Program-made: the position numbers and the translations under genes
Notes under the pieces: generated by a model
The model's database searches: none
Seen by the model: the letters and a program-made list of their open reading frames with translations, nothing else
Told to the model about the DNA's origin: nothing
Part shown: positions 3,151 through 60,494 of the stretch, piece after piece
How positions within the stretch are numbered: position 1 is the stretch's first letter
Layout of the letters: the number at the start of each line of letters is the position of its first letter
IMG/VR virus record: IMGVR_UViG_3300037504_000682
Coordinates: 1 to 64,000 of that record
DNA length: 64,000 nt
Direction: 5' to 3' (one strand)
Origin: a virus

Positions 3151-3179
3151 TTGACCTATGTAAACATTTATGGTAAACT
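3151..3179 (+). promoter_or_regulatory. Sigma70-type late promoter
   Basis: TTGACC-17-TAAACT with extended -10 TG. Confidence 0.75.
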
Positions 3180-3241
3180 GAAACATATGGCATAGGGGGC
3201 GGCACCAGACCGCTACTCCCTATGCCTCTATTTGTTTACAG

Positions 3242-3297
3242 CCCCGATGCCGCCGCCCCCTATGCCAAGGCGTGCCGGTATCGGGGTTTTATTATTT
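3242..3297 (+). terminator. Leader terminator-like hairpin
   Basis: CCCCGATGCCG/CGGTATCGGGG followed by TTTTATTATTT. Confidence 0.65.
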
Positions 3298-3307
3298 GGA
3301 GCGAACT

Positions 3308-3679
3308 ATGGACTTAACATCACTACCGAACATTTTAGCGAGCCTGGTGGGTGGGGGGCTAACGGTTCCGGCTACCAGCTATGTAATCAACTGGCTTGGC
3401 CCCCGCATCAAAACCCCGCTCACCAAAAACCAAAAGCGTGTCATTTCTTTTGTTGTCGCTGCTGTCATTATGGTAGCGGCGTTTTTGCTTCAGGTGAGAT
3501 TGGGCTATGCGCCAGCGCCCACAAGCCCGGCGGCGTGGTTTGAGCAGGTGACGCCGTTCTTCTTTGCCGCCTGGACCGTCAGTCAGGGCGTGCTATCGGC
3601 CTGGAAGCGGGGTAAGGCGGAGCCGGATGAAGAGATGCGGATTTTGCCGGTGGAGGATGAGCCGGAGCCGGGGGCCTAG
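3308..3679 (+). CDS. Holin-like membrane protein
   Basis: Three hydrophobic segments and a charged tail; SD GGAG; first late gene. Confidence 0.55.
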   Translation: MDLTSLPNILASLVGGGLTVPATSYVINWLGPRIKTPLTKNQKRVISFVVAAVIMVAAFLLQVRLGYAPAPTSPAAWFEQVTPFFFAAWTVSQGVLSAWKRGKAEPDEEMRILPVEDEPEPGA

Positions 3680-5096: not shown

Positions 5097-5287
5097 CATT
5101 TTTGGGTGGCAGCAATGACCAATGATTTACTGCTAGATATTTTAGAACGCATCACAAAGCCATTTACGGATGTTTTTTGGTCCGCCTATCTTAAGGCCGG
5201 AGCGCCGTATGGTGAAACGGATGAGGGATTTGCGCGGTGGCTAAAGGAAATCAACGACAAGCTAGACAATCATCATTTGTTACAGAG

Positions 5288-6490
5288 ATGACCGACAGCC
5301 TCAAGTTTTGGAACGATCCGATTGACACGTTTTACGACAGCGCAATGCAAGCCGGAATGGAGGCAGAGCAAATGAAACCGCAATCAGCGGCGTGGGTGCA
5401 ATCGTGGCAGATTGTACCGTGCAGCAATCAGCAATGGTGCATCGACCGGGTTATTGAGAGCTGCGCTGGTAAATTTACCGACTTGCTTTTGGGCGTATTA
5501 CACCTGACCGGCGGGGACAGCGACGGGGCGTGCCTGGGTTATTCCGGGCACTACCACCAACGACCGGAGCGTATTAATGGCCTGACGATGCTGGAGTACT
5601 TCACCCAGCAGGCTCACGCCGCCGGGATGAGGGTTCACGGCTGGCACGTCGTTGGTCTGTTCGGTGGCCACCGGGGGCTGGTTGACCCGCTGCCTGATGA
5701 ATGGAATTTGAAGGGGGGATGCGGTGATCGGTCCTGGGTCGACTTCCGCAGGGAGGAAGCCCGCCAGCGCATCGCTGATGCCATTATGGACATTCAACGG
5801 CTCAACAAGCTAGATGGTGTTCACCTGGATTACATTCGCTACCACTTGAGCGCCCACGGCTGCGCCGGGCTCCACGCCGACCAGATTACCGACATCGTGG
5901 AGCGGGTGCGAGCTGGTCTGCCTGCCGGGCAGGATGTTAGCGTTGCTTTCCTGGGCGATGCGCCGGACGCCTACGGGGGCAGTAAGTCATCGAATACCTA
6001 TCAGGACATTGACGGCTGGCTCGACCGGGGGCTGGTCGATTTTGCCTGCCGGATGCGCTACCACGATGACCCGTCAGCAGTGGCGGCCCCCAATGTAGAG
6101 AGCTGCCCCAACAGCCACCTCATCCTCCCCGGCGTGTCTGCCGAACCGGCGGTGTACGATGACCCCGATACCGCCGCCGCTTTTATTAAGCAGGTGAAGG
6201 AATGGAAGGCCCTGGGCTATACCGAGCTGTCCTATTTTGACCACGGTCGGTTGGATGACCTGCCGATTGAGGCGTGGGCCGTGATACCGGATGTCCAGCC
6301 GGTGGCGCAAGAGCCGGAGCCGCCGGCAGAGCCGGAGCCGGGGACCATAACGATGCCGATTGGCGACTATAACAGCATCATTCTTTCGCGCGACCGGGCA
6401 CGCCAACAGGTGCAGGCTATTGGGGAGGAATTGGCCCGACTGCGGCAGATGGTAAACGAATTGCAGGCCGGGATGGAGGGGGAGGGATGA
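5288..6490 (+). CDS. Glycoside hydrolase-like 10 (GHL10/YngK-type TIM barrel), candidate lysin
   Basis: AHAAGMRVHGW, LDGVHLDYIRY, QDIDGWLDRGLVD; start could be 5372. Confidence 0.75.
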   Translation: MTDSLKFWNDPIDTFYDSAMQAGMEAEQMKPQSAAWVQSWQIVPCSNQQWCIDRVIESCAGKFTDLLLGVLHLTGGDSDGACLGYSGHYHQRPERINGLTMLEYFTQQAHAAGMRVHGWHVVGLFGGHRGLVDPLPDEWNLKGGCGDRSWVDFRREEARQRIADAIMDIQRLNKLDGVHLDYIRYHLSAHGCAGLHADQITDIVERVRAGLPAGQDVSVAFLGDAPDAYGGSKSSNTYQDIDGWLDRGLVDFACRMRYHDDPSAVAAPNVESCPNSHLILPGVSAEPAVYDDPDTAAAFIKQVKEWKALGYTELSYFDHGRLDDLPIEAWAVIPDVQPVAQEPEPPAEPEPGTITMPIGDYNSIILSRDRARQQVQAIGEELARLRQMVNELQAGMEGEG

Positions 6491-6956: not shown

Positions 6957-7387
6957 TGGGAAGGGCTGACAGCAGGCTTGATTATGACCGGGTAGCCACC
7001 ATTTTGGTGGAGGCTGCTTTTTTTGGTGATAGTCAAGCTGCCGAGCGGTGGGGTGTATCGGAGCGGACGGTACAAAGATACCGAAAGAGAATGGGCAAAA
7101 GTGACGAACTGTCGTCTATTGTCGCCTTAAAAAAAGAAAATTTTGAGCAAAACTGGGCCGATGAAATCCCCGCCGCTATTCGCTCTGCTACCCGTTTTTT
7201 GATGAACGCCAGCCGACAGGCCGACCCAACGGACCCGGCCGCCATTCACGCCGTAGCCGGGGCGATGAAAATAATGGCCGAAGTTGGCTTAACAAAGGAA
7301 ATCTTAGATGTTCGGCTTGGTCGATACGATAGACCGAACGGAGAAGAAAATAGACAGGTGGATAGTATCCCAGCCTCAACAGGGTAG
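6956..7387 (+). CDS. Terminase small subunit (HTH)
   Basis: AAERWGVSERTVQRY HTH directly before terL. Confidence 0.75.
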   Translation: MGRADSRLDYDRVATILVEAAFFGDSQAAERWGVSERTVQRYRKRMGKSDELSSIVALKKENFEQNWADEIPAAIRSATRFLMNASRQADPTDPAAIHAVAGAMKIMAEVGLTKEILDVRLGRYDRPNGEENRQVDSIPASTG

Positions 7388-8750
7388 GGACGAGTTGCCA
7401 TTCACCGACTTCGTTAACCGCGTCAACCCCCGGTATGAATGGTACGGATACGCCCGGCGACTTGCCGGCCTGTTGCAGCAGGTGGCGGACGGGGAGACAA
7501 AGCGGCTTATGATATTTATGCCGCCCCGCCACGGCAAGAGCGAGCTTGTCAGCCGGTTATTTTCGGCATATTACCTTTACCGCCATCCGGAGCGATGGGT
7601 GGGTATCAGCAGCTACGCGGCTGAGCTGGCCTACACCTTTAGTCGCAACGCTCGGGACAACTACACCAGAGCGGGTGGCACGCTCAAGAGCGACGCCAGT
7701 GCGGTGAAACATTGGGAGACCGGGCAAGGCGGCGGCCTGTGGGCGGCTGGGGTTGGCGGGCCTATTACCGGCCGGGGCTTCCACCTGGGCATTATTGACG
7801 ACCCAATCAAAAACGCTGAGGAGGCCGCCAGCGAGACAATCAGAGCAAAACACAAGGACTGGTATGACAGCACCTTCTACACCCGCGAGGAGCCGAACGC
7901 CGCCATTGTGGTCATTCAGACCCGGTGGCACGAAGATGATCTGTCCGGCTACCTGCTCAGCAAAGAGCTAGACGAGCCTGAGCAGTGGCGCATCGTCCAC
8001 TTTGAGGCAATCAAGCGAGAGGATGAGCCGGACTACCCGCAAAGCTGCACCACAGAACCGGACCCGAGGGAGCCGGGTACAGCCCTGGCCCCGGAGCGAT
8101 ACGACATTGACCGGCTGCGGCGCATCAAGGGGCGCATTGGGGATTATTTCTTTGCGGCGCTTTATCAACAGTGCCCCCGCCCCCGTGAAGGCAATATGTT
8201 TAAGCGGGAGTGGTTCGACATCGTTTCGGCCCCACCCGCCAACGCCCGGCGGGTTCGGTACTGGGACAAGGCCGGCACTGCTGACGGCGGAGCCTATACC
8301 GCCGGGGTGAGAATGTCGGTCGATGAGAATAGCGTCTACTACGTAGAGGATTTGGTTAGGGGCCAGTGGGGAGCAGCGGAACGAGAGGCGGTCATCAAAC
8401 AGACCGCCCAGATGGATGGGCGGGACGTGGGTATCTTTGTGGAGCAGGAGCCCGGCAGCGGCGGCAAAGAGAGCGCAGAGGCCACCATCCGCAATCTGGC
8501 GGGCTTCACCGTTAAGGCCGACCGGGTGACCGGAGACAAGGTGACGAGAGCGGAGCCATTCGCCGCCCAGGCCGGTGGGCGCAACGTCAAGCTGGTCAAG
8601 GCCGATTGGAACCGGGGCTATCTGGACCGGCTGATGTCGTTTCCCCACGGGACGTATAAAGACGACATCGACGCCTCAAGTGGGGCGTTTAACAGGTTGG
8701 CCGAGCCGATAGCGGTCCAATACCAAGAACACAATCCATTTTACGGATAG
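7308..8750 (+). CDS. Terminase large subunit
   Basis: MPPRHGKS Walker A, IIDDPIK, QTRWHEDDL, YWDKA, DDIDA. Confidence 0.95.
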   Translation: MFGLVDTIDRTEKKIDRWIVSQPQQGRDELPFTDFVNRVNPRYEWYGYARRLAGLLQQVADGETKRLMIFMPPRHGKSELVSRLFSAYYLYRHPERWVGISSYAAELAYTFSRNARDNYTRAGGTLKSDASAVKHWETGQGGGLWAAGVGGPITGRGFHLGIIDDPIKNAEEAASETIRAKHKDWYDSTFYTREEPNAAIVVIQTRWHEDDLSGYLLSKELDEPEQWRIVHFEAIKREDEPDYPQSCTTEPDPREPGTALAPERYDIDRLRRIKGRIGDYFFAALYQQCPRPREGNMFKREWFDIVSAPPANARRVRYWDKAGTADGGAYTAGVRMSVDENSVYYVEDLVRGQWGAAEREAVIKQTAQMDGRDVGIFVEQEPGSGGKESAEATIRNLAGFTVKADRVTGDKVTRAEPFAAQAGGRNVKLVKADWNRGYLDRLMSFPHGTYKDDIDASSGAFNRLAEPIAVQYQEHNPFYG

Positions 8751-11392: not shown

Positions 11393-11421
11393 TTGCAATC
11401 AAACTTATTTTATGGTAATAT
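11393..11421 (+). promoter_or_regulatory. Internal head-operon promoter
   Basis: TTGCAA-17-TAATAT; shares TTTATGGTAA with the 3151 promoter. Confidence 0.7.
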
Positions 11422-11468
11422 AGAAGATAGCACAACCCAATAGATTTGGGCCAACTCTATTTTAAGAC

Positions 11469-11530
11469 AACGCCCGTTTGTGACAGGTCAACGCCCGGAG
11501 CGACGCCTGCCGCAAGCGGGCGTTTTTTTA
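11469..11530 (+). terminator. Long hairpin plus U-run before scaffold gene
   Basis: AACGCCCGTTTGTGACAGG/CCTGCCGCAAGCGGGCGTT then T-run. Confidence 0.65.
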
Positions 11531-28011: not shown

Positions 28012-28245
28012 TTATGCGGCCGGGTCGTTCCGGCCTTTATCTGTCAACTCGTCCGCCGCTTTCAGCTCAGCGGCGATGATTTCCATTAACCTGTCGTTGC
28101 GTACCACCCGCCGGAGGAGGGCTCGCCAGGTGGGCTCGCCAGCCGTCTGGCCGGCGGTGGCTACGGAGCCGGTGGCAGCGGCCAGGTCGTCCAGCCGCTG
28201 CCAATCCTCCGGAGCGAGCGTGGTGCTACGTCGCTCTTGTGGCAT
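28012..28245 (-). CDS. Ribbon-helix-helix-like regulator
   Basis: RRSTTLAPEDWQRLDDLAA...RALLRRVV. Confidence 0.55.
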   Translation of the reverse strand: MPQERRSTTLAPEDWQRLDDLAAATGSVATAGQTAGEPTWRALLRRVVRNDRLMEIIAAELKAADELTDKGRNDPAA

Positions 28246-28249
28246 CGGA

Positions 28250-28471
28250 TTACCTCAATAGGTAGGCGTCAACCAGGTCAGCGGCGGTAATCTCAAAACC
28301 GTCCGGATGATTTCGGTTGAACACGCGGGCCACAATTGTGTCGCCCTTGCCACGATCAACCAGGCTATCCACACTCTCGCCAGCGTTGACCGGCTCCCAC
28401 TTGCCAGACCTGATACCGGCCTGGCGGGCGATTGCTTTGACCTCGGGTGAGGCATTATTCAGGTTAAACAT
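28250..28471 (-). CDS. Hypothetical protein
   Basis: SD AAGGAG directly after promoter. Confidence 0.65.
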   Translation of the reverse strand: MFNLNNASPEVKAIARQAGIRSGKWEPVNAGESVDSLVDRGKGDTIVARVFNRNHPDGFEITAADLVDAYLLR

Positions 28472-30682: not shown

Positions 30683-31423
30683 TCACCCCCTGACCTTCCC
30701 ATTGAGTGCCCGTAGGTCACGCCGGATGGTCGCCCGGCTCACGTCCAGGGCATCGGCCATCTCGGTCTGGTTCATTCCCTGTTCATGTAGCACCATAACC
30801 TGTTCACGTCTCTGTTCAATGGCCAGGTCTCTGGCCTCGTTGGCCTGGTCTAGTCCGGTCATTTGGGTGGCCATTTGGTGATGTTCACCCACTTTGGCCT
30901 CTTTGACCTGGTCACTGACCCGGGCCAGGGCCTCACGGCGCTGACCGATCTGGTCATTCAGGTGGTCAATCTCTGTCCGGGCCTGGTCCACCCGGGCGGT
31001 CATCTCGGCCAGGGTGGTCACCAGCCCTGACCGTTCGATCCGAACCTTGACCAGTTCCCTGAGCACCTCGGAGGCCACGAGCAGGGTCACCGGCGGCAGG
31101 GCGGCCACGAACCAGGCCACCGAATTGGGCGGGGCGTGCAGCACGTTGCCGGTGATGGTGATCACCCCGTAGGCCAGGATCAGGCCGATGAGCCATCGCC
31201 GCCGGACGCCGATCAACTGGAAGGCGAGCAGGACGGCCGTGAACACGACCAGGGCCACGTCCACAATGACCGGCCATATCCAGGCCAGATGAGCCGGCTT
31301 GCCATTGGTTATAGCCAGATCGTTCAAGGCCTCGAAGCTGAGCACAAATGAGCCCAGGGCGATCAGTGCAACGGCCACCACCACGGCCAAAGAAACGGAA
31401 TCGATCAGCTTGTTGTTCATCAT
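30683..31423 (-). CDS. DUF2637-like (Spd-type) 4-TM plus coiled-coil plus HTH protein
   Basis: LSFEALNDLA, AWIWPVIVD, GNVLHA, AALPPVTLL; MADALDVSRATIRRD. Confidence 0.8.
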   Translation of the reverse strand: MMNNKLIDSVSLAVVVAVALIALGSFVLSFEALNDLAITNGKPAHLAWIWPVIVDVALVVFTAVLLAFQLIGVRRRWLIGLILAYGVITITGNVLHAPPNSVAWFVAALPPVTLLVASEVLRELVKVRIERSGLVTTLAEMTARVDQARTEIDHLNDQIGQRREALARVSDQVKEAKVGEHHQMATQMTGLDQANEARDLAIEQRREQVMVLHEQGMNQTEMADALDVSRATIRRDLRALNGKVRG

Positions 31424-31584
31424 CTGCTCGCTTTCTCCAAACGCACGTTTAAAAATAAAAAGCGCCCTCTACTTTGCGCAGGGGACGCTCAACCAATACA
31501 ATAAGCACAGGTCTCCCACCGCCCCTGTCGGTCGGGAGGCTCAGGCCGGGGTTGCTGGTGTTGGCGCACCAGTCCCGGCCGCTT

Positions 31585-31911
31585 TTATTTCTCACATTTT
31601 AACACAGCTCCCCGCCGGCTGCAATCGGCAATCTGGCGGCGATACTCATCCGGCCCCTGACCGTTGAGCGTTCGCCGGGCGATCACCTCGGCCTGGTCGA
31701 GGTCGACCTTGTGCCAGATGGCTACGGCCAGCAGGCAGCGCGGCTCGACCGACCGGCGGCGGATGTCCCGGGGAGGCGCGTTCATTTCGTCGCAGGTCGA
31801 GGCCGGCAGCGGGCAGCTCAGGCACACGTCGGTGCCGGGGGTCCGGTAGTACAGGTTGGGCCCCGGGCCGGCCTTATCCTCATCCTGAAACAGCTTGATC
31901 GACTTCCCCAC
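31585..31911 (-). CDS. Hypothetical Cys-containing protein
   Basis: CLSCPLP motif. Confidence 0.45.
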   Translation of the reverse strand: MGKSIKLFQDEDKAGPGPNLYYRTPGTDVCLSCPLPASTCDEMNAPPRDIRRRSVEPRCLLAVAIWHKVDLDQAEVIARRTLNGQGPDEYRRQIADCSRRGAVLKCEK

Positions 31912-34823: not shown

Positions 34824-34912
34824 AATGCGCTCCTTTTAGTATAATAGGGTCGGCCGGGAGATAGTGCGCTCGCCTGGCCGAGGCCCACCGGGTTACGGCC
34901 GGTGGGCCGGTT

Positions 34913-37432
34913 TTATTTTGCCGTCTTGCCATTCATCGCCGGCTGAGCCACCCCTGCTGATTTGGCTTCCGTAGTCGCCAGCCAATCAAACAGGGTCGGG
35001 GCCAGGGCCTGCTGCTCAATTGTCTCGCAGTACCTGACGCCATTCTCGAAGTAGGTGTCGCTCAACTCGATCCCATAGCCGCGCCGGCCGAGTTTGACAG
35101 CCAGATACGGCACAGTAAAGAGGCCGGCGAACGGGTCCAGGATCAGATCATCTTCATTGCTATAGAGCCGGATGGCCCGCTCCACGATGTCAAACGGCAG
35201 GGGACACAGGTGGTTTTCCTGCTGCTTGCGCCGCTGCTCGCTGTTGAGGCAGCGCATAAAAACGATGTCGTCCCAGACCCAATCGCTGGTGCTGACCGGT
35301 GGCTCGTAGAAAAAATGAGCCGGCAGGTTGCCCGCCGCCTCTTTGGTTTCCAGCCGGGCCACGTGGGCCTCGTAGTCATAGAGCTCGGCCGGCTGCAGCA
35401 TGCCGTTTCCATTTGACCGCCAAAAGCCATGAGCTGCGATTTGCCACCGGGCCCGGCTGTAGTCGGCCTTGTCTTTAGTCACCGGCTCATCGGCGTATTG
35501 ATCAGAATTGTCGGTCGGCGGCTTTCGGAAAAGAAGCAGGTACTCCGGCAGGCCGGAACCCATCTTGGTGGCATCCTTGGTCATCTCGGTCCATCCCAGC
35601 CGGTATGTTGACGCGTTCTCCCGGACCACGTCGGTAACGATGGTCCGCCGGCCTTCGTACATCCAGCCGTGCTCCCGGAAAGCCATCACGCACTCATCAG
35701 AGAATGGCGCAATTTCGGTGAAGCCGTGGGGCGTCTGGTGGCCGTAGAGAACCCGGTCTTTGACGTGAATGGCCGCCACCCGGCCGGGCTTTGTCACCCG
35801 CAGGAGCTGGGGGATGAGAAAATCCATCTGCTCCCAAAACTCGACATCGGTCGAGTTGTGACCAAAGTCCTCGTACTGGATGGTATATTCGTAGTGATTA
35901 CCAAACGGGATCGAGGTCATAATCATATCGACCGAATTGTCCTCCAGCCGAGGCATCTCCAAAACACAGTCGTTATTGACCGCCGTGAATCGTTTGCCTC
36001 CCGCCTCCCGCCGGTCGATGCCGATCTGGCGCTTCAGGTCGCTGGTTAAGGCCGCGTGGGAAAGTCCATATTTTCTCACGATCCGCTGCATCTTCTCTAC
36101 CTGCCGCTCGTACTGGCTCCACTTGCGTTGAAGGGCCTTAACCACCTGATCTTCGCTCTCGGCGTAGATGATATGGATGTTAACCTCTTTTCCCTGCTGG
36201 AAGCGGTATAGCCGGTGAACGGCCTGGATGAAATCCTGAAACTTGTAATCGACACCCAGAAAGACGGCGTCCGAGCAGTAGTGCTGGAAGTTACAGCCGG
36301 ATCCGGCGATCTCCGGCTTGGTGGCCAGGATCGGGAACTGACCCCGGCTAAAACCCAGGATGCGCTCCTCTCGGAGCTCCAGGGCCTGGGAGCCGTAGAC
36401 GCTGATCGCGTCCGGGACGGCCCGCTCGATGGCCCGCCGCTCATCCTCCAGGTGGTGCCATAGGAGCCAGTGGTGGCCGGGATTGGCCTCGATGATCTCG
36501 ACCATCTTGCCTACCCGGGCGGCCATCGTGGCCCGCTTTTCGGCAACCGCCTCCCGGACCCCACCGGCCGCATCCAGAAACAGCCGGTGCTGGCCCCGGT
36601 TGTCGGTTTGCTCCCAGGCCCGTTGGTGGTCAACCGGGAGGCGGTGCCAGTGAACCTGAAGTGGCGGCAACTCGTAGCCCTCGTCTGAGTAGCCCAGGTC
36701 GCTGGGCTTGTAGACAAAGAGCGCCCAGCTGGCCACCCACAGCCAGAACTTCTTTTCCTGGTTGGGGATCAGGGTCAAATTGCCGGCCTTGTTCACGTCC
36801 CGCTGGAAAAAGCGGGTCAGGGCCTGGCCGTTGTCCATAATGTCCAGGAAGTTGGCGTAGTAAATAAGCTCCCGGTATCGGTTGGGGTCGGGAGTGGCTG
36901 TGCAGACCCACCGGTACGGGACGCCGGCAAAAACTTCGTTGAAGATGTGGTAGGTTTTGCTGTCCAAGCTCCGGAGGACGCTGCCCTCATCCAGGCTGAC
37001 TCCGGCGATATCATGCAGCCGGGGGTCGATGTCGCCGTCTCTAACCCGCTCGTAGTTGGTGATCAGATACGGCGTGTCTGCCGCCTCGATCTCGGCGTCA
37101 GTCCGGACGTACTGGAACCGGACGCCCATAGCGGGCCCGTCCTCTTCGGAAAACTGATGCTTTACCCCAAGGGGGCAAACGATAAGGAACTTACCGCCGC
37201 GGCGGCGGGCCAGAACCTGGCGGCCCAGCTCGATCTGGATTCTGGTTTTGCCCAGGCCAAAGCTCATTGCCACCAGAGCTCTCCCCTGGCGAGCAGACCA
37301 GACCACGGCGTCTCGCTGGTGAGGCTTTAGCAAGGCGGGGTCGAGATCGTTCGGGTCGAGATGGAAGCCGGCCCGGACGGCGATGTCGGCTTTTTGTTGC
37401 AGGAATTTGAGATAGTTACCGTTGTTGTTCAT
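34913..37432 (-). CDS. SF2 helicase / N4-N6 DNA methyltransferase fusion
   Basis: GLGKT, LDEGS, TAT, RLYRFQQ; TSIPF, HLCPL, DPFAG. Confidence 0.9.
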   Translation of the reverse strand: MNNNGNYLKFLQQKADIAVRAGFHLDPNDLDPALLKPHQRDAVVWSARQGRALVAMSFGLGKTRIQIELGRQVLARRRGGKFLIVCPLGVKHQFSEEDGPAMGVRFQYVRTDAEIEAADTPYLITNYERVRDGDIDPRLHDIAGVSLDEGSVLRSLDSKTYHIFNEVFAGVPYRWVCTATPDPNRYRELIYYANFLDIMDNGQALTRFFQRDVNKAGNLTLIPNQEKKFWLWVASWALFVYKPSDLGYSDEGYELPPLQVHWHRLPVDHQRAWEQTDNRGQHRLFLDAAGGVREAVAEKRATMAARVGKMVEIIEANPGHHWLLWHHLEDERRAIERAVPDAISVYGSQALELREERILGFSRGQFPILATKPEIAGSGCNFQHYCSDAVFLGVDYKFQDFIQAVHRLYRFQQGKEVNIHIIYAESEDQVVKALQRKWSQYERQVEKMQRIVRKYGLSHAALTSDLKRQIGIDRREAGGKRFTAVNNDCVLEMPRLEDNSVDMIMTSIPFGNHYEYTIQYEDFGHNSTDVEFWEQMDFLIPQLLRVTKPGRVAAIHVKDRVLYGHQTPHGFTEIAPFSDECVMAFREHGWMYEGRRTIVTDVVRENASTYRLGWTEMTKDATKMGSGLPEYLLLFRKPPTDNSDQYADEPVTKDKADYSRARWQIAAHGFWRSNGNGMLQPAELYDYEAHVARLETKEAAGNLPAHFFYEPPVSTSDWVWDDIVFMRCLNSEQRRKQQENHLCPLPFDIVERAIRLYSNEDDLILDPFAGLFTVPYLAVKLGRRGYGIELSDTYFENGVRYCETIEQQALAPTLFDWLATTEAKSAGVAQPAMNGKTAK

Positions 37433-43232: not shown

Positions 43233-43506
43233 AAAAAAACCTTTTTTCTGATTAAAATTTGAATTTAATTTGGTTAGCCTGGATTTTTCGGAATCCGTGA
43301 TAGAATGAGTCTGATCCTTAACAACCCGGCCTGCCGCCCCTACGACAGGCCGGACTTTTTCATTGGGCCGCCAACGGTTGGCGACGGGGGCGGCCCAATT
43401 CCTCCTCCGTTTTGTGTATATAATGGTGTATCTATCAACCAGTACCAAAGTACCAGGAGGAGAAAATGAAACCTCAATTAAAACCCGTTAGGAGGTCGAT
43501 TAATCT

Positions 43507-44471: not shown

Positions 44472-44528
44472 ATGATTTAGGATCATGTGCCGAAAGGCGT
44501 GCGGGTTCGAGTCCCGCCTTCCCCACTA
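44472..44528 (+). other. att core: 3' part of tRNA-Leu(TAG)
   Basis: ATGA-TTTAGGA-TCAT anticodon arm, GCC-GAAA-GGC variable arm, GCGGG-TTCGAGT-CCCGC T arm, CTTCCCCA; no canonical D arm. Confidence 0.9.
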
Positions 44529-44529
44529 A

Positions 44530-44743
44530 CTGGTGACCTGTTTTTTGTTGCCGGTTCATGAATATAAATCTCCTACCCTTCTGAGGGTAGCGTGATTAGT
44601 CGCTCGAAAGAGCGGCGAGTGCTGTTGTTCACCCGGGGTTGTTTGGCGACGGGTCCGGGTGAGCGGTTCTGTAGCTGGCGATTGCCATTACAGAACAAAA
44701 GGAAGACGCTCCTGCCTCAGTCGGTGGGGGCGTCTTTTTTATT
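44530..44743 (+). ncRNA. Candidate structured RNA ending in intrinsic terminator
   Basis: Consecutive hairpins with G-U pairs on the plus strand, a GAAA tetraloop and a terminal U-run. Confidence 0.5.
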
Positions 44744-45002
44744 ATCCCTTACTTTCGTCTTCTTTGTGCTTTTCCAGGAATTCAGACAGAGGCACGCCGA
44801 CGGCATCAGCAATTGCTCGCAGGGTATCCAGGCGAGCTCCGGGCTTGTACCCGTTTTTTACGATACCGTAAGTGTGACTGTACGACCGGTCGATCTCCCG
44901 GCAAAGCCAGTCGATGGTTTTGCCCATCTCGTCAAGACGCTGCTCCAGGAATGTTTTTTGTTCCTCTTGTTCCATAATAGCGGTGGCCAGCATCAACAGC
45001 AC
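44742..45002 (-). CDS. XRE-family HTH regulator
   Basis: LCREIDRSYSHTYGIVKNG...LDTLRAIADAVGV. Confidence 0.85.
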   Translation of the reverse strand: MLLMLATAIMEQEEQKTFLEQRLDEMGKTIDWLCREIDRSYSHTYGIVKNGYKPGARLDTLRAIADAVGVPLSEFLEKHKEDESKG

Positions 45003-46061: not shown

Positions 46062-46355
46062 ATGGCCTACAATCTACCGTTTATCAACGATTATCGAAGT
46101 CAACAGCCCGAAGCCGACAGCGCCCTTCCCCAGACCGAGGCCGCCAAGTACGAAGTCGAGTGGCTCACCTGGATGGAGCGCAAAACGGTCGGCCCCAAGA
46201 ATTTCAAGGCCACCCTGGCCACCTTCCGGCGGGACTTCGGCCCTCAGACCGACTGGTCCGAAGACTGGTCCGTCCAACAAGGCGAGACCCTGCTGATCAC
46301 CGTCGCCCTCCGGGAGCATATCCTGGACTTGTCCGCTCAAGAGAATAGCCAATAA
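46062..46355 (+). CDS. Hypothetical protein
   Basis: First ORF after promoter. Confidence 0.6.
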   Translation: MAYNLPFINDYRSQQPEADSALPQTEAAKYEVEWLTWMERKTVGPKNFKATLATFRRDFGPQTDWSEDWSVQQGETLLITVALREHILDLSAQENSQ

Positions 46356-46444
46356 AAAAGCCCCACCGGCCGGCGGGAGTACGGCCGGGTGGGGCTCCTT
46401 TAATTGGTGCGAAAGCACCGGAGAACACAAGGAGTATAGCACAA

Positions 46445-46783: not shown

Positions 46784-46859
46784 AAAGCGAGCGGCCGGGT
46801 GCTGCGAACACCGGGCCGCTCGATAGTCAGTCTCTCCGACCAAAGAAAGGTGACTTGAG

Positions 46860-47264
46860 ATGAGTGTAGCACAGAAAACCAGAGATCGTCAAATGAAGCA
46901 TTTAGAGAATGTAGTCGAGAGACACAATCTCAACCGCTCCATTTTGCTTCAGGCCCAGCGAACCGGCAACCCGGCCGCCGGCCTCAAGGTCGCTCTCCGC
47001 CGGCTCTTTCCGACCGCCGGGGCCACCGAAGCCGATCACCTAGAGGCCCCCGCCGTTGTCGACGAGCCGGGCCCCAAGCCCAAGCCGGCCATCCAGAACA
47101 TCGGTCACAGTATTCAGCAGCTCCTGGGCCAGGAGCCGGTGACCCACAGCCCCAAGCCTCGGCAACTCACCGCCGAGGAGCGTGAGCGAGGCTACGCGGC
47201 GGCCCTGCGGCCGGACGCCTGCAACCGTAAGCGCCGAAACAACTGGCAGTTTAAGGCCCGGTAG
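46860..47264 (+). CDS. Hypothetical protein
   Basis: SD AAGGTGA. Confidence 0.55.
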   Translation: MSVAQKTRDRQMKHLENVVERHNLNRSILLQAQRTGNPAAGLKVALRRLFPTAGATEADHLEAPAVVDEPGPKPKPAIQNIGHSIQQLLGQEPVTHSPKPRQLTAEERERGYAAALRPDACNRKRRNNWQFKAR

Positions 47265-54401: not shown

Positions 54402-54707
54402 ATGGTTAAACCTGCTCACCACGTCGAACCAGAGGTTCTGGTCGAAAATCAAACCCACAAAATCTTTGCCAAAGGTGGCCGGCTATTCAAGATCGAGTAT
54501 ATCCGGGGCCAGGAGCAGGACCGGCCAGAAGACATTATTTTCTGGATTTGGACCGCGAACGGCTGGCGACTTTTTGACTCCCTGAAGGGTTGGCCTGATC
54601 AAGCTATTTATACCCTGGCCGGCCTGATAGTCGAATTGACCGACCAGGCCATTACCGTCTCAGGTTCTGACCATTCCGTAGAAATCTACAAGGAGCTTTT
54701 GCAATGA
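54402..54707 (+). CDS. Hypothetical protein
   Basis: SD GGAGGAG; coupled to DHH gene. Confidence 0.55.
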   Translation: MVKPAHHVEPEVLVENQTHKIFAKGGRLFKIEYIRGQEQDRPEDIIFWIWTANGWRLFDSLKGWPDQAIYTLAGLIVELTDQAITVSGSDHSVEIYKELLQ

Positions 54708-55513
54708 TCTGCATTTACCACGCCGATTGCCCGGACGGCTTCGGAGCCGCCTGGGTGGTCAACCGCTGGGCCCGGCAAAATGAGGTATCGGTCAGGTTCA
54801 TTCCGGCTGCCTACGGCGACGAACCTCCCGACGTGGCCGGCCAGGAGGTGGTCATCGTCGACTTCTGGTATCCCCGGGACGTCCTCCTGGAGATACACCG
54901 CCAGGCCAAAAGCCTGATCGTCCTGGACCACCACGACGGGGCCAGAGAGGCCCTGGCTGGCCTGGAGTTCGTTCGGGTCGGCGACCAGGCTGGCTGCATG
55001 ATGGCCTGGGGCCATTTCTTTTACGGCTGCGAGCCGCCGCTCTTTTTGGAGTACATCCAGGAAGGCGACCTGTACCGCTGGAAGCTGGATCACTCCCGGG
55101 AAGTCTACGCGGCCATCTGTAGCTACCGCCAGGATTTCAACCTGTGGAGCAAGTGGGAGAGCCGGGGCGCGGTCTACCGCCTGGCCGAGGAGGGCCGGGC
55201 CATTATGCGGGAGCGAAACAACCAGATCGCCAAGCTCGCAAACGGCCCGGTGGTCCGGGTCGAGATCGGCGGCTACAACGTGCCGTGCGTCAACGCGCCC
55301 CACTTCCTGGCCAGCGATTTGTGCAATCTGCTGGCCGTAGGTGAGCCGTTTGCCGCCAGCTACTGCGACGAGGCCAACCACCGCCGCTTCAGCCTGCGGG
55401 CCACTGCTGCCAGCGGAGTCCACGTTAACCAGGTGGCCCGGCTCTACGGCGGCGACGGCCACGAGCGGGCGGCGGGATTTACCATCAAGAAACCTGAAAT
55501 TTTGGGAGGATAA
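54704..55513 (+). CDS. DHH/DHHA1 phosphoesterase (homolog of 2244-3131)
   Basis: IYHADCPDG, IVDF, LDHH, LAVGEPFAASY, YGGDGH. Confidence 0.9.
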   Translation: MICIYHADCPDGFGAAWVVNRWARQNEVSVRFIPAAYGDEPPDVAGQEVVIVDFWYPRDVLLEIHRQAKSLIVLDHHDGAREALAGLEFVRVGDQAGCMMAWGHFFYGCEPPLFLEYIQEGDLYRWKLDHSREVYAAICSYRQDFNLWSKWESRGAVYRLAEEGRAIMRERNNQIAKLANGPVVRVEIGGYNVPCVNAPHFLASDLCNLLAVGEPFAASYCDEANHRRFSLRATAASGVHVNQVARLYGGDGHERAAGFTIKKPEILGG

Positions 55514-55627
55514 CGTGACTATTATCGTTGGCGCGATTTGTGGCTTGGTCGGCCTAATCGACGGCTTTGTGGTCGGCTTTACGGCCGGCTCCGACACGGC
55601 CACAGACGAAAACAGGAGAAAGTATCA

Positions 55628-56522: not shown

Positions 56523-56846
56523 CAAAATAGGCCGGCTTATTTTGTGACAGCCACCAAGGAAATTACTGGTCGCTAAATGCAAGATAAGCCGGCCTTTTTG
56601 TGTGGTCGTTCGTCAGAAATTATCAGCCGGTAAACCAGGGATAGCGCCAACTAATTTCTCTGGCCACAGGAGAGAAATAGTGGCGACTAAAGGCGGGCTT
56701 ATTTCTCTCTCTTGTCCACACGAATTACCGGAGCCTATTCTGGAAATAGCCCAGTTTATTTTCTCCCGGCCACCCGAGAAAATAACGGCCATTAATCGCC
56801 GGTTAAGCCGCTCTATTTTCTCCCGGGCCGGACGAGAAAAATAAAC
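56523..56846. repeat. Array of inverted GAAAATA/TATTTTC motifs
   Basis: At least 10 alternating half-sites forming several hairpins. Confidence 0.7.
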
Positions 56847-56847
56847 G

Positions 56848-56971
56848 TTGCAAAGTCGGAACAAACGTGCTACACTACTGTCAGCGGCGGGAGTCCAGTG
56901 CGGGCTACCCCGCCGCTTACAATTTTAAAGGCCCTCGGACACCCCGTCGCCGTCCGAGGGTCGTTTTTTTT
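56848..56971 (+). promoter_or_regulatory. Late promoter with two-hairpin leader and terminator
   Basis: TTGCAA-17-TACACT; hairpin 56883-56917; CCCTCGGAC/GTCCGAGGG plus T-run. Confidence 0.75.
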
Positions 56972-56977
56972 GTACTT

Positions 56978-57571
56978 ATGCCATCACTCCAGGAAATTGC
57001 CGCATTTTTAGCCTTCATCGCCCCGGCCGCCGGGGCTGTCTGGCTTTTGATCAGAGAACGGACCACTCAGCGGCTCAAGGCTGAAATCGAGGCTCAGAAC
57101 AAGCGGTTGGAGCTGGAGCTTGAGGAGTCGCGCCAGCGGCTGGAGGAGCGCAACAAGCGACTGGAGGCCGAGCTAGAGAAGGCCCGCCAGCAGCTCGGGG
57201 CCGAGATTGACGCCCAGGCCGACCACCGGGAACACGTCCAGAAGCAGTCCGATCTTGAGACTGCCTACCACCTGGCCGAGGGAGCGGCAGCCCAGCAGGT
57301 TATGGCTGAGTTGGTGGCCAACTCCCAGGATAAGCTCGACGACGCCTACGGCTTCATCAGGTCGGACATCAAGGCCGACCTGGAGCAACTTCAAACGCTC
57401 GTTGACGAAATACAGAAACAGCTCTTGTCCTATTACCCGAAGATCGACGAGGTCCCCTCGATCAAATACGAACTCAGAAACTTCTCCACCCAGTCCCGTC
57501 TCCTGGTCAACCTCATTAGAGAGATTTACGAAAAATTATTCAAGGAGCAGTCGGATGAAAAACTGGACTAA
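56978..57571 (+). CDS. N-terminal TM plus coiled-coil protein
   Basis: Architecture parallels 3681-4205. Confidence 0.65.
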   Translation: MPSLQEIAAFLAFIAPAAGAVWLLIRERTTQRLKAEIEAQNKRLELELEESRQRLEERNKRLEAELEKARQQLGAEIDAQADHREHVQKQSDLETAYHLAEGAAAQQVMAELVANSQDKLDDAYGFIRSDIKADLEQLQTLVDEIQKQLLSYYPKIDEVPSIKYELRNFSTQSRLLVNLIREIYEKLFKEQSDEKLD

Positions 57572-58279: not shown

Positions 58280-58942
58280 ATGGCAGTTGAATTAGTTTAC
58301 GGCGAGCGCAAAGAGCGCGAGACCAAAAAGGCGATCCTGGCCTGCAACGACTACTTGCGGATGGGACCCGGCCGGAGCTTACAGAAGCTACACGACCGTT
58401 ACCAGGCCGTATCCGAACCGTTACCACCAACCAGGCGAATTACCACCTTAAAGCGTTGGTCAAAGGATTTTGAATGGCAAAAACGGGCCGCTGATTACGA
58501 AGCCTATCTTGACCATCAAAAGACCGAAATGGCCGAGCGACGCCGGCGGCAGGCGATGGAGCAGGGCCTAGCCCTCGACTACGAGCGGGTCACCGTCCTG
58601 AAAAACCTGACCTCTCTGCTTCTGGGCGAGATGCTCAAAAAAGACCCGGCTACCGGCAAGTTGATCAACATCTGGCTCCAGGACGCCAAGCAGATCGGCT
58701 CCGGAATTGACGCCGAACGGGTCGACATCGAACACTTCAACGCCGCCATCATTCGGGAGCTGCGCGGCCTGCTGGACGACCTGGCCAAAGAGACCGGCGG
58801 ACGCAAGGAGAAACACGAATTCAGCGGACCGGGCGGCGGGCCGATCAAGACCGAAGACACCACGATGGACGACGATGGTCGGGCCCGGCGGATCGTGGAA
58901 CTACTGACCAAGGTCAAAGGGCGCGTGAGCGACGATGATTGA
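58280..58942 (+). CDS. Terminase small subunit
   Basis: YLRMGPGRSL, RWSKDFEWQKRA, EFSGPGGGPI; precedes terL. Confidence 0.75.
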   Translation: MAVELVYGERKERETKKAILACNDYLRMGPGRSLQKLHDRYQAVSEPLPPTRRITTLKRWSKDFEWQKRAADYEAYLDHQKTEMAERRRRQAMEQGLALDYERVTVLKNLTSLLLGEMLKKDPATGKLINIWLQDAKQIGSGIDAERVDIEHFNAAIIRELRGLLDDLAKETGGRKEKHEFSGPGGGPIKTEDTTMDDDGRARRIVELLTKVKGRVSDDD

Positions 58943-60494
58943 CGAGTGGGAGGTCAGTCAGCTTCAGCAGCATATGACCGGCCGGGAGCGGGCCTACCTG
59001 GAGGCCTTGCTTTCTGACGAGTTCATTTCGCTCTCGCAATACATCCAGGCCGCCTGGCCCGTGGTCGAGCCGGCCACCGACTTCATCTCCAACTGGCATA
59101 TCGACGCCATCAGCGACCACCTGGAGGCGGTCACCTGGGGCTGGATCAAAAACCTGATCATCAACATCCCCCCGCGCCATATGAAATCCCTGACCGTCTC
59201 TGTCTTCTGGCCGACCTGGGCCTGGACCTGGCGGCCGGAGCTGCGCTGGCTCTTTGCCTCCTACGCCGAGAAGCTGGCCATCCGGGATAACGTCAAGAGC
59301 CGGCGAGTGATCAAATCGCCCTGGTATCAGGCCCGCTGGGGCCACGTCTTTCGGCTGACCGGCGACCAGAACGAGAAGATGCGCTTTGAGAACGACCGCT
59401 CCGGCTACCGGATCGCCACCAGCGTAGGCGGCAGCGCCACCGGCGAGGGCGGCGACATCATCGTGGTCGACGACCCCCACAAGATGAAGGAGGTCGAGAG
59501 CGACCTGATCCGGGAGGGGGTCCTGGACTGGTGGGATGAGACGATGAGCACCCGCCTCAACGACCCCAAGAGCGGCAATAAGGTGATCCTGATGCAGCGG
59601 GGTCACGAACAGGACCTGACCGGCCACGTCCTGGAAAAGATGGAGCAAGGGGGCGAAAGCTACGAGCACCTGTGCCTGCCGGCCGAGTATGAGCCGACCA
59701 CCTATGTGACGGCCATCGGCTTTGAAGACCCCCGCACTGAGCCGGGCGAGCTCTTGTGGCCGGATCACTTCGACCAGGAGGCCATCGACAACCTGAAGAT
59801 TTCGCTTGGCTCCCGGGCGTCTGCCGCCCAGCTCCAGCAGCGGCCCAGCCCGGCCGAGGGCGACATCTTTAAGAAAAAATGGTGGCGCTTCTGGATTCCG
59901 CCCGGCTCCAACCTGCCGCCTTACCGGATCAAGCTGCCGGACGGCTCTCTCTTTGAGTGCGAGCAAAGGGAGTTGCCGGCGTTTTTCACCGAGCAGCTCC
60001 AGAGCTGGGATATGGCCTTCAAGGACACCAAGTCCAGCGCCTTTGTGGCCGGCCAGGTCTGGGCCCGGCTGGGGGCCGACAAGTTCCTGCTCGACCAAGA
60101 GCGAGATCGGTGGGACTTCCCGGCCACCCTGGCCGCCGTCCGCCGGGTGACCACCCGCCACCCGGCCGCTCACGCCAAGCTGGTCGAGGATAAGGCCAAC
60201 GGGCCGGCCGTGATCCAGACCCTGCGCAGCAGTGTCGCCGGCCTAATCGCGGTCAATCCGGAGGGGGACAAAGTCTCCAGGGCCAACGCCGTGACCCCAG
60301 ACATCGAGGCCGGCAACGTCTACCTACCCCACCCGGCCATCGCGCCCTGGGTCGACGGCCTGATCGACGAGTGCGCCTCTTTTCCTAACGGCGCTTTCAG
60401 CGACCAGGTCGACACCCTGAGCCAGGGGCTGGTCCGGCTGAAGAAAAACGAGCAGCGGGATCAGAAAAGCAGGCCCCGCTCCCACAGTTTGTAA
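58935..60494 (+). CDS. Terminase large subunit (second)
   Basis: INIPPRHMKS, VVDDPH, MQR, SWDMAFK, EDKANG, DQVD. Confidence 0.95.
   Translation: MIDEWEVSQLQQHMTGRERAYLEALLSDEFISLSQYIQAAWPVVEPATDFISNWHIDAISDHLEAVTWGWIKNLIINIPPRHMKSLTVSVFWPTWAWTWRPELRWLFASYAEKLAIRDNVKSRRVIKSPWYQARWGHVFRLTGDQNEKMRFENDRSGYRIATSVGGSATGEGGDIIVVDDPHKMKEVESDLIREGVLDWWDETMSTRLNDPKSGNKVILMQRGHEQDLTGHVLEKMEQGGESYEHLCLPAEYEPTTYVTAIGFEDPRTEPGELLWPDHFDQEAIDNLKISLGSRASAAQLQQRPSPAEGDIFKKKWWRFWIPPGSNLPPYRIKLPDGSLFECEQRELPAFFTEQLQSWDMAFKDTKSSAFVAGQVWARLGADKFLLDQERDRWDFPATLAAVRRVTTRHPAAHAKLVEDKANGPAVIQTLRSSVAGLIAVNPEGDKVSRANAVTPDIEAGNVYLPHPAIAPWVDGLIDECASFPNGAFSDQVDTLSQGLVRLKKNEQRDQKSRPRSHSL

Follow-up and report, generated by a model that had tools for sequence, protein, structure and literature searches.

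The leaders that precede the lysis and packaging genes of one phage module and the packaging genes of another in this viral DNA resemble the PR'-tR' region of lambda, and we put the chances at about even that both are promoter-proximal terminator gates, opened by a putative read-through factor. The intrinsic terminators of the two leaders, T1 and T2, end only 15–20 nt short of the first start codons, too little to accommodate a promoter, and late transcription must therefore read through them. From the geometry of the sequence, the folds, the recurrence of the layout and the paralogy of two of its copies, we infer that the promoters are active, that transcription stops at the terminators or passes them, and that a factor exists.

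The window, the whole stretch of DNA analyzed here, is the first 64 kb of the 99,175-bp IMG/VR record IMGVR_UViG_3300037504_000682. The record consists of two separate phage modules, region A (1 to ~28.3 kb) and region B (~28.3–99.2 kb). Region A carries genes for a beta clamp and a DHH phosphoesterase, leader 1, lysis-like genes, TerL (7308), and portal, MuF, scaffold, capsid, and tail genes. Region B carries lysogeny and early genes, a DHH phosphoesterase gene (54704–55513), leader 2, TerS and TerL genes, and a long structural module, as well as a tRNA-3'-end-like att core near 44.5 kb (44500–44530). The DHH phosphoesterase of region B is encoded on the plus strand; a longer overlapping ORF on the minus strand (54686–55603) was rejected as spurious. 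There are two TerL genes in the record (window positions 7308–8750 and 58935–60494), with one full structural module each. Only four items are common to the two regions: TerL (28% identity), MuF (29%), the DHH phosphoesterase (48%), and one 256-bp repeat (95%) that occurs at the end of module A (28013–28268) and at the very end of the record (98920–99175). Two modules in one 99-kb record point to tandem or co-assembled phages. The preliminary description took the leaders to head both late operons; since there are two structural modules with separate terminases, these are the packaging operons of two different phages.

A small phage-borne CRISPR array is found in region B beyond the window (record 69549–69755), with four repeats CTATTCCCCACACGCGTGGGGGTGAACCG and a promoter at ~69478–69513. 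The exact repeat core occurs in 40 stretches, mostly from Anaerolineae, Caldilineales, and Ardenticatenia metagenome-assembled genomes. Because of these matches, the earlier guess of a Chloroflexota host gains support, and the host is probably a member of the Anaerolineae.

The features of the two leaders are as follows.

3151–3179, plus strand: leader 1 promoter-like site, TTGACC-17-TAAACT with an extended TG
3188–3203, plus strand: region 1, the 5' arm of H1 in leader 1, a perfect 16-nt complement of 3252–3267
3189–3226, plus strand: 5' hairpin H1 of leader 1, from folding; two tiers, with a C/A internal loop and then UCUAUUUGUUU
3240–3296, plus strand: intrinsic terminator T1 of leader 1 with a U-rich tail; stem-loop 3240–3288, 11-nt loop 3258–3268
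3308–3679, plus strand: first gene after leader 1, encoding a 123-aa membrane-like orphan protein; GGAG RBS at 3297–3300, ATG at 3308
56848–56876, plus strand: leader 2 promoter-like site, TTGCAA-17-TACACT with an extended TG; paralogous to record 78935–78963
56883–56917, plus strand: 5' hairpin H1 of leader 2, from folding; 9-bp lower stem, AC bulge, 5-bp upper stem
56930–56972, plus strand: intrinsic terminator T2 of leader 2; stem-loop 56930–56962, 11-bp stem, 11-nt loop ACCCCGUCGCC at 56941–56951
56978–57571, plus strand: first gene after leader 2, encoding 197 aa with an N-terminal transmembrane helix and a coiled coil; ATG at 56978

Sequence reading and folding place the promoter, the hairpin formed by 3188–3203 and 3210–3226, and the terminator of leader 1 where the preliminary description had them. 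H1 and T1 are separated by a 13-nt A/U-rich linker, and the leader folds far better than its shuffles (z-score -4.9). The perfect 16-nt pairing that had been claimed between 3188–3203 and a segment inside the terminator is also borne out, as 3252–3267 is the exact reverse complement. This segment, region 3, comprises 6 nt of the upper 5' stem of T1 and 10 of its 11 loop nucleotides. The complementarity is far beyond chance: a match of at least 12 nt arises in 1.5e-4 of loop shuffles.

Several other reading frames lie in and around leader 1. A mini-ORF, AUG GCA UAG (3187–3195), is situated at the predicted 5' end of the leader RNA, within the 5' arm of H1, and its leaderless translation would compete with both pairings of region 1. 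Two genes 5' of the leader, a 96-aa basic Zn-ribbon-like protein with two CxxC...CxxC motifs is encoded at 1915–2205 on the plus strand. Downstream, a 417-aa protein (5237–6490) has a weak GHL10 glycosyl-hydrolase-like match, and together with the membrane protein encoded at 3308–3679 it may form a lysis cassette behind leader 1.

In leader 2, a 12-nt linker joins H1 to T2, and T2 has a U8 run within 56963–56972. The fold of this leader is likewise far better than that of shuffles (z-score -5.8). The genes for TerS (58280) and TerL (58935) come after the gene for the 197-aa protein. Directly 5' of the leader 2 promoter (56640–56845), and again 5' of the CRISPR promoter (record 69200–69400), there are arrays of a dyad element (TATTTCTC...GAGAAATA) that look like putative regulator binding sites.

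Leader 2 had been ascribed the same design as leader 1. The order of promoter, hairpin, and terminator is indeed the same, and a match between hairpin arm and terminator loop exists, with GCGGCGGG (56884–56891) and CCCGUCGC (56943–56950) forming seven Watson-Crick pairs and one G-U pair. However, this match touches loop bases only and is near chance. An 8-bp match is found in ~5% of shuffles or random 11-mers compared with the upstream 51 nt, and in 1.4–3.6% when the comparison is with the 5' arm alone. Among 35 other terminators with 10–12-nt loops from fetched loci, matches of at least 8 nt to the upstream 86 nt are not rare. The arm/loop complementarity of leader 2 is marginal (p about 0.05).

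The arrangement seen in the two leaders recurs elsewhere in the record. A search for extended -10 promoters over the 99 kb gave 11 matches. A terminator lies 20–150 nt 3' of the promoter in six of these (0.75 expected, p=3.5e-5), and the usual order, terminator and then promoter, is present in only one. The six transcription units have a common cassette layout, in which an extended -10 promoter is followed by a 5'-proximal hairpin, an intrinsic terminator, and then an RBS. Besides leaders 1 and 2 they are the following.

11393–11530, plus strand: cassette M3, region A; TTGCAA-17-TAATAT with TG, small hairpin 11436–11450, long terminator 11468–11524, then U7
Record 78935–79233, outside the window: cassette M4, region B; precedes head genes, paralogue of leader 2
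46788–46892, minus strand: cassette M5, of lower confidence; promoter 46892–46863, TTGACG-18-TACACT with TG, hairpin, terminator 46822–46788
31462–31624, minus strand: cassette M6, of lower confidence; promoter 31624–31596, structured leader, terminator 31488–31462

Cassettes precede the packaging and the scaffold/capsid genes in both modules. M3 is located directly 5' of the scaffold (11559) and major head (12238) genes of region A, M5 precedes a small minus-strand gene, and M6 precedes an excisionase/HTH-like gene (30683–31423). The M3 terminator offers three alternative 5' partners, two copies of AACGCCCG and one of GACGCCUGC, for the single 3' arm GCGGGCGUU. An 8-mer common to leader 1 and M3, CUCUAUUU, was considered together with boxA-like linkers and set aside, as these are within chance expectation.

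Leader 2 and M4 can be aligned without gaps from the -35 element through the 5' arm of the hairpin, promoter spacer included, with 35 of 43 positions identical. Conservation within the promoter spacer (11 of 17 positions) is compatible with a binding site. The hairpin is kept between the two, with one compensatory pair (G56891–C56909 to A-U) and one wobble change, and its apical part is 17 nt long in leader 2 versus 5 nt in M4, where the loop is GCUAU. Judged by this alignment, leader 2 and M4 are true paralogues. The first hairpin of M4, at about +2 to +29, is followed by U6 and is for this reason a predicted terminator itself. The loop of the second M4 terminator, CUUAC, is not complementary to the hairpin arm, and the stretch between the two terminators holds a 44-aa ORF (record 79010–79144) that has an RBS of its own.

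The 5' hairpins of leader 1, leader 2, and M4 contain the motif GCUAY. In the two leaders GCUAC sits at the junction of the upper stem and the bulge (3212–3216 and 56904–56908), in keeping with the GCT-AC bulge noted previously in both first hairpins.

The mechanism that we prefer, the terminator gate, would work as follows. A strong sigma-A/sigma-70-type extended -10 promoter would start a leader of ~90–105 nt. This leader is predicted to form a 5' hairpin followed by a strong intrinsic terminator that abuts the RBS of the first gene. Unaided, RNA polymerase would produce the short leader RNA only. A phage-encoded or phage-induced factor would then cause the polymerase to read through and thereby switch on the lysis, packaging, and head genes, in the manner of lambda PR'-tR'-Q or N-nut. 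The most likely recognition or loading element would be the 5' hairpin, with GCUAY in leader 1, leader 2, and M4; this hairpin would also shield the read-through mRNA at its 5' end. As the six cassettes are distributed over two phage modules, the gate would be a genome-wide device and not special to two late operons; to speak of a late gate may be too restrictive, since M5 and M6 precede non-late genes. Leader 1 alone has, through its 16-nt complementarity, a possible kinetic switch in addition, in which blocking of H1 would allow region 1 to trap the upper stem and loop of the terminator. Of the attenuator/antiterminator motif proposed in the preliminary description, control at the leader terminator is retained on grounds of geometry, and the shared conserved two-state RNA motif is not.

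Candidates for the factor were sought throughout the record, in which region A is truncated at its 5' side, and the negative results count against the gate. The earlier remark that no Q-like protein could be recognized agrees with six-frame searches of the 99-kb record, where PF06530, PF03589, and PF06323 gave no match at E<=1. No NusG was found in six-frame searches of the record, and matches to sigma region 4 were all sub-threshold and in unrelated genes. The small ORFs 5' of both leaders could not be assigned to any family. This includes the Zn-ribbon-like protein, which has one homologue (77% identity, on a 917-nt contig) and was not adopted as the factor beyond the rank of a candidate. 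A further point against the gate is that a -10-like pause element (TAnnnT) is absent from about +1 to +30 of leader 1, leader 2, and M4, although the test is weak, as the start sites are predicted; M3 carries TAGATT.

A simpler explanation, which we regard as unlikely, is that there is no dedicated switch. The terminators would then be ordinary operon-insulating ones with promoters squeezed in just 5' of them, expression would depend on partial read-through (constitutive attenuation), the hairpins would act as 5' stabilizers, and the complementarity in leader 1 would be left over from an inverted duplication. At leader 1, M3, M4, and M6, a co-oriented gene ends 9–140 nt before the promoter. 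An operon-end terminator is therefore expected at the position of the hairpin, and the terminator of these four cassettes could simply end the upstream co-oriented operon. Leader 2 does not follow this pattern, as it has no co-oriented gene for ~600 nt upstream. H1 of leader 1 and the first hairpin of M4 (H1') are themselves trailed by U-rich runs, and a hairpin-plus-terminator pair is also present at an ordinary gene end (34849–34916). In addition, the redundant 5' partners in the M3 terminator make terminator-internal repeats look like a local habit. On the other hand, the wasteful order of promoter and then terminator occurs six times against one conventional order, which suggests design, and both the promoter spacer and the hairpin are conserved between leader 2 and M4.

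Another possibility is that the short terminated leader RNAs and the large terminator loops take part in trans in a kissing-loop network in region B, which would modulate termination or in which the leader RNAs would act as small RNAs. Its members would be the loop of an att-linked RNA (44560–44745), the T2 loop, and the loop of a leftward leader hairpin (43398–43361, minus strand). The att-linked RNA, on the plus strand, adjoins the att core, is strongly structured (z=-8.3) with five hairpins, and ends in a terminator. The hairpin that provides the possible trans partner is this one.

44628–44664, plus strand: hairpin of the structured RNA 44560–44745, with loop UUGGCGACGGG at 44643–44653

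The loop UUGGCGACGGG matches two other loops: it is perfectly complementary over 9 nt to CCCGUCGCC, which lies in the T2 loop, and over 11 nt to CCCGUCGCCAA, which lies in the loop at 43388–43378 (minus strand). Its match to the T2 loop is better than the cis match of H1, which is 8 bp long and includes a G-U pair. There are precedents in the CI RNA of P4, which pairs with seqA and seqC and so controls termination, in IsrK, a short RNA that acts on its own read-through form (PMC4825925), and in StxS (PMC7547250). The complementarity is nevertheless only 9–11 nt long, and the loops show no YUNR motif. The leader 1 loop has no equivalent partner in the record, in which region A is truncated, and the CUUAC loop of the M4 terminator is also without a partner. 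A given 9-mer is expected by chance ~0.8 times per 198 kb, so that the argument rests on all three copies being in hairpin loops. These matches suggest a trans kissing-loop network of the P4 CI RNA or IsrK kind in region B; as an account of the leaders we consider it quite unlikely.

The explanation given in the preliminary description was that each leader is a self-contained, signal-dependent two-state switch, in which the 5' arm of H1 has two possible partners, its own 3' arm (terminator on) and the interior of the terminator (terminator off), and that this motif is conserved in both. We hold this to be quite unlikely. The 16-nt complementarity of leader 1 speaks for it, and T1 and T2 both have unusually large, C-rich loops of 11 nt. 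For leader 1 transcripts ending at 3268–3280, the helix between regions 1 and 3 is the predicted minimum free energy structure, at -37.6 versus -25.0 kcal/mol for H1 alone. Once formed, it would have to cross a barrier of ~26 kcal/mol to reach T1. However, the calculated barrier from H1 to this helix is ~12.6 kcal/mol, too slow for a window of <1 s during transcription without a trigger, and the full leader prefers H1 plus T1 (-55.8 vs -40.7 kcal/mol). These kinetics imply termination by default, with a trapped read-through state possible only if H1 is blocked, for example by a factor on region 2 (3210–3226).

In neither leader does the alternative helix exclude the terminator stem. In leader 1 it takes up 6 of the 18 bases of the 5' stem together with the loop and leaves the basal 12 bp of T1 untouched. 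The alternative pairing in leader 2 lies 18 kcal/mol above H1 plus T2 and is at chance level. It uses no stem nucleotide and therefore cannot exclude the terminator. The arm/loop design is also missing from the paralogue M4 and from M3, M5, and M6, early units among them. For any of the cassettes, pairing of the 5' half of the terminator with upstream sequence gains no more energy than it would with that sequence shuffled, and for this reason such a gain is uninformative as the signature of a switch. A kinetically controlled switch in leader 1 alone is physically plausible on these calculated energies.

The two leaders are alike in architecture and are not detectably homologous, which also argues against a conserved switch. 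When the window is searched with a covariance model of leader 2, leader 1 scores 15.4 bits (E=0.05) and comes sixth, behind ordinary hairpin-plus-terminator sites at 34849–34916 and 46354–46422. The motif that had been called conserved is thus scored below generic terminators, and homologues of it were not found. No Rfam family, including C4, IsrK, leaders, and riboswitches, gave a gathering-level match in the window, both leaders showing only sub-threshold noise (E>=0.2). Similarity searches and covariance models likewise returned no homologue of either leader: blastn was negative on 50,697 phage genomes, the two models, one per leader, gave nothing below E=0.27 on 257 related loci, and no leader homologue was seen among about 430 related loci. 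In 401 Anaerolineae-class genomes, blastn with both leaders gave only short chance matches in coding DNA.

The neighboring genes did not lead to related leaders either. The first late proteins are orphans, the 123-aa protein after leader 1 being one among 5.8e9 proteins, and relatives of the first late genes gave no homologous leaders. On viral and metagenome contigs, DHH relatives do not exceed 52% identity, and their downstream context is not conserved; closer DHH homologues (P0006–P0021) have 54–64% identity. A search of the 401 genomes with the DHH protein gave one 48% match with an unrelated downstream region. TerL relatives, which reach 76 and 60% identity, have neither the upstream synteny nor a similar leader, and a scan for the motif CCAG...GCTAC gave tRNA-like noise only. 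Covariation of the alternative pairing, which had been named as a check, finds no support in the sole homologue found, the paralogue M4, which is without arm/loop pairing.

That the inverted repeats are DNA operators for a repressor or activator just 3' of the promoter, and not RNA elements, is highly improbable: leader 1 has three copies of GGCAUAGGG/CCCUAUGCC, leader 2 and M4 have AGCGGCGG/CCGCCGCU palindromes, and dyad arrays are situated just 5' of the leader 2 promoter, but the half-site spacing changes from 17 nt in leader 2 to 5 nt in M4, which an RNA stem tolerates, the stems hold G-U pairs, which would be mismatched in DNA and likewise on the opposite strand, and the hairpins are backed by U-tracts.

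Among known systems, classical terminator/antiterminator attenuators include the antisense-controlled attenuation of pT181 and pIP501. As in these, an upstream segment of leader 1 has a choice of pairing between a nearby partner and part of the terminator. In contrast to them, the alternative helix misses the base of the terminator stem in leader 1 and any stem base in leader 2, and we found neither a leader peptide nor a ligand pocket nor a countertranscript.

The terminator gate is most readily compared with the late cassette of lambdoid phages (lambda, 21, and 82), which consists of PR', QBE/SDPE, tR' (giving 6S RNA), and Q as defined previously (10.1101/651190); BrrG of the Bartonella gene transfer agent is a further Q-like example. 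In that cassette, as predicted here, a strong promoter that looks constitutive is followed by an intrinsic terminator within ~100 nt, directly before the late genes, and a short RNA is the default product (10.1101/651190; 10.1101/2024.11.20.624540). The short terminated PR' RNA is a by-product there, and StxS arises from termination at PR' (PMC7547250). Unlike the lambdoid cassettes, those described here come without a protein of a Q Pfam family and without an evident -10-like pause element, occur several times per genome, in some cases before non-late genes, and have a stable hairpin at the very 5' end, in phages whose host phylum is probably Chloroflexota.

The leaders also resemble lambda N/nut (boxA plus boxB) and the boxB-boxA leaders of rrn operons in having a small hairpin and an A/U-rich linker, at several operon starts and upstream of terminators. 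As in N/nut, a short motif, here GCUAY, is found by eye at the same place in three hairpins, and the resemblance of CUCUAUUU and GCUUACAAUUU to boxA is by eye only. Unlike N/nut, no N-like protein was identified, and the hairpins are long and G+C-rich and not 15-nt, GNRA-like boxB elements. As with the put RNAs of HK022, a structured RNA directly after the promoter could act in cis on the polymerase without a known protein. The put RNA has two specific stem-loops and gives constitutive read-through, and no put model in Rfam matches here. Constitutive read-through of the put type would make the adjacent terminator pointless.

Leader 1 resembles the immunity region of P4 (seqB as CI RNA, seqA, and seqC) in that a single segment can pair with two others, with a bearing on termination. 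Similarly to P4 and to IsrK of Gifsy-1, the structured RNA of region B carries the complement of two leader loops (PMC4825925). The differences are that in P4 the pairing leads to termination and the leader is processed to give CI, that the order of the segments is not the same, and that no Rfam model of C4, IsrK, or related families matches here.

How phages of Chloroflexota regulate their genes is almost unexplored. As the known antiterminator families are absent, a new factor or an RNA mechanism is to be expected. An extended form of the gate, which we think unlikely as a whole, would be that Anaerolineae phages use a new antitermination system, in which a G+C-rich 5' hairpin with GCUAY in its bulge or loop stands at the head of each gated transcript and recruits a novel factor or acts on the polymerase itself, and in which the terminator loops are also addressed by RNA pairing, with cis pairing through the 16-nt switch of leader 1 and trans pairing in region B. 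If this were true, pairing by the att-linked structured RNA would couple the lysogeny module to read-through of the late genes. Leader 1 provides three complementary segments in a compact, testable setting, and region B provides a candidate trans RNA. More generally, if most transcription units start with a promoter that is followed by a terminator, this would imply regulated read-through as the main timing device.
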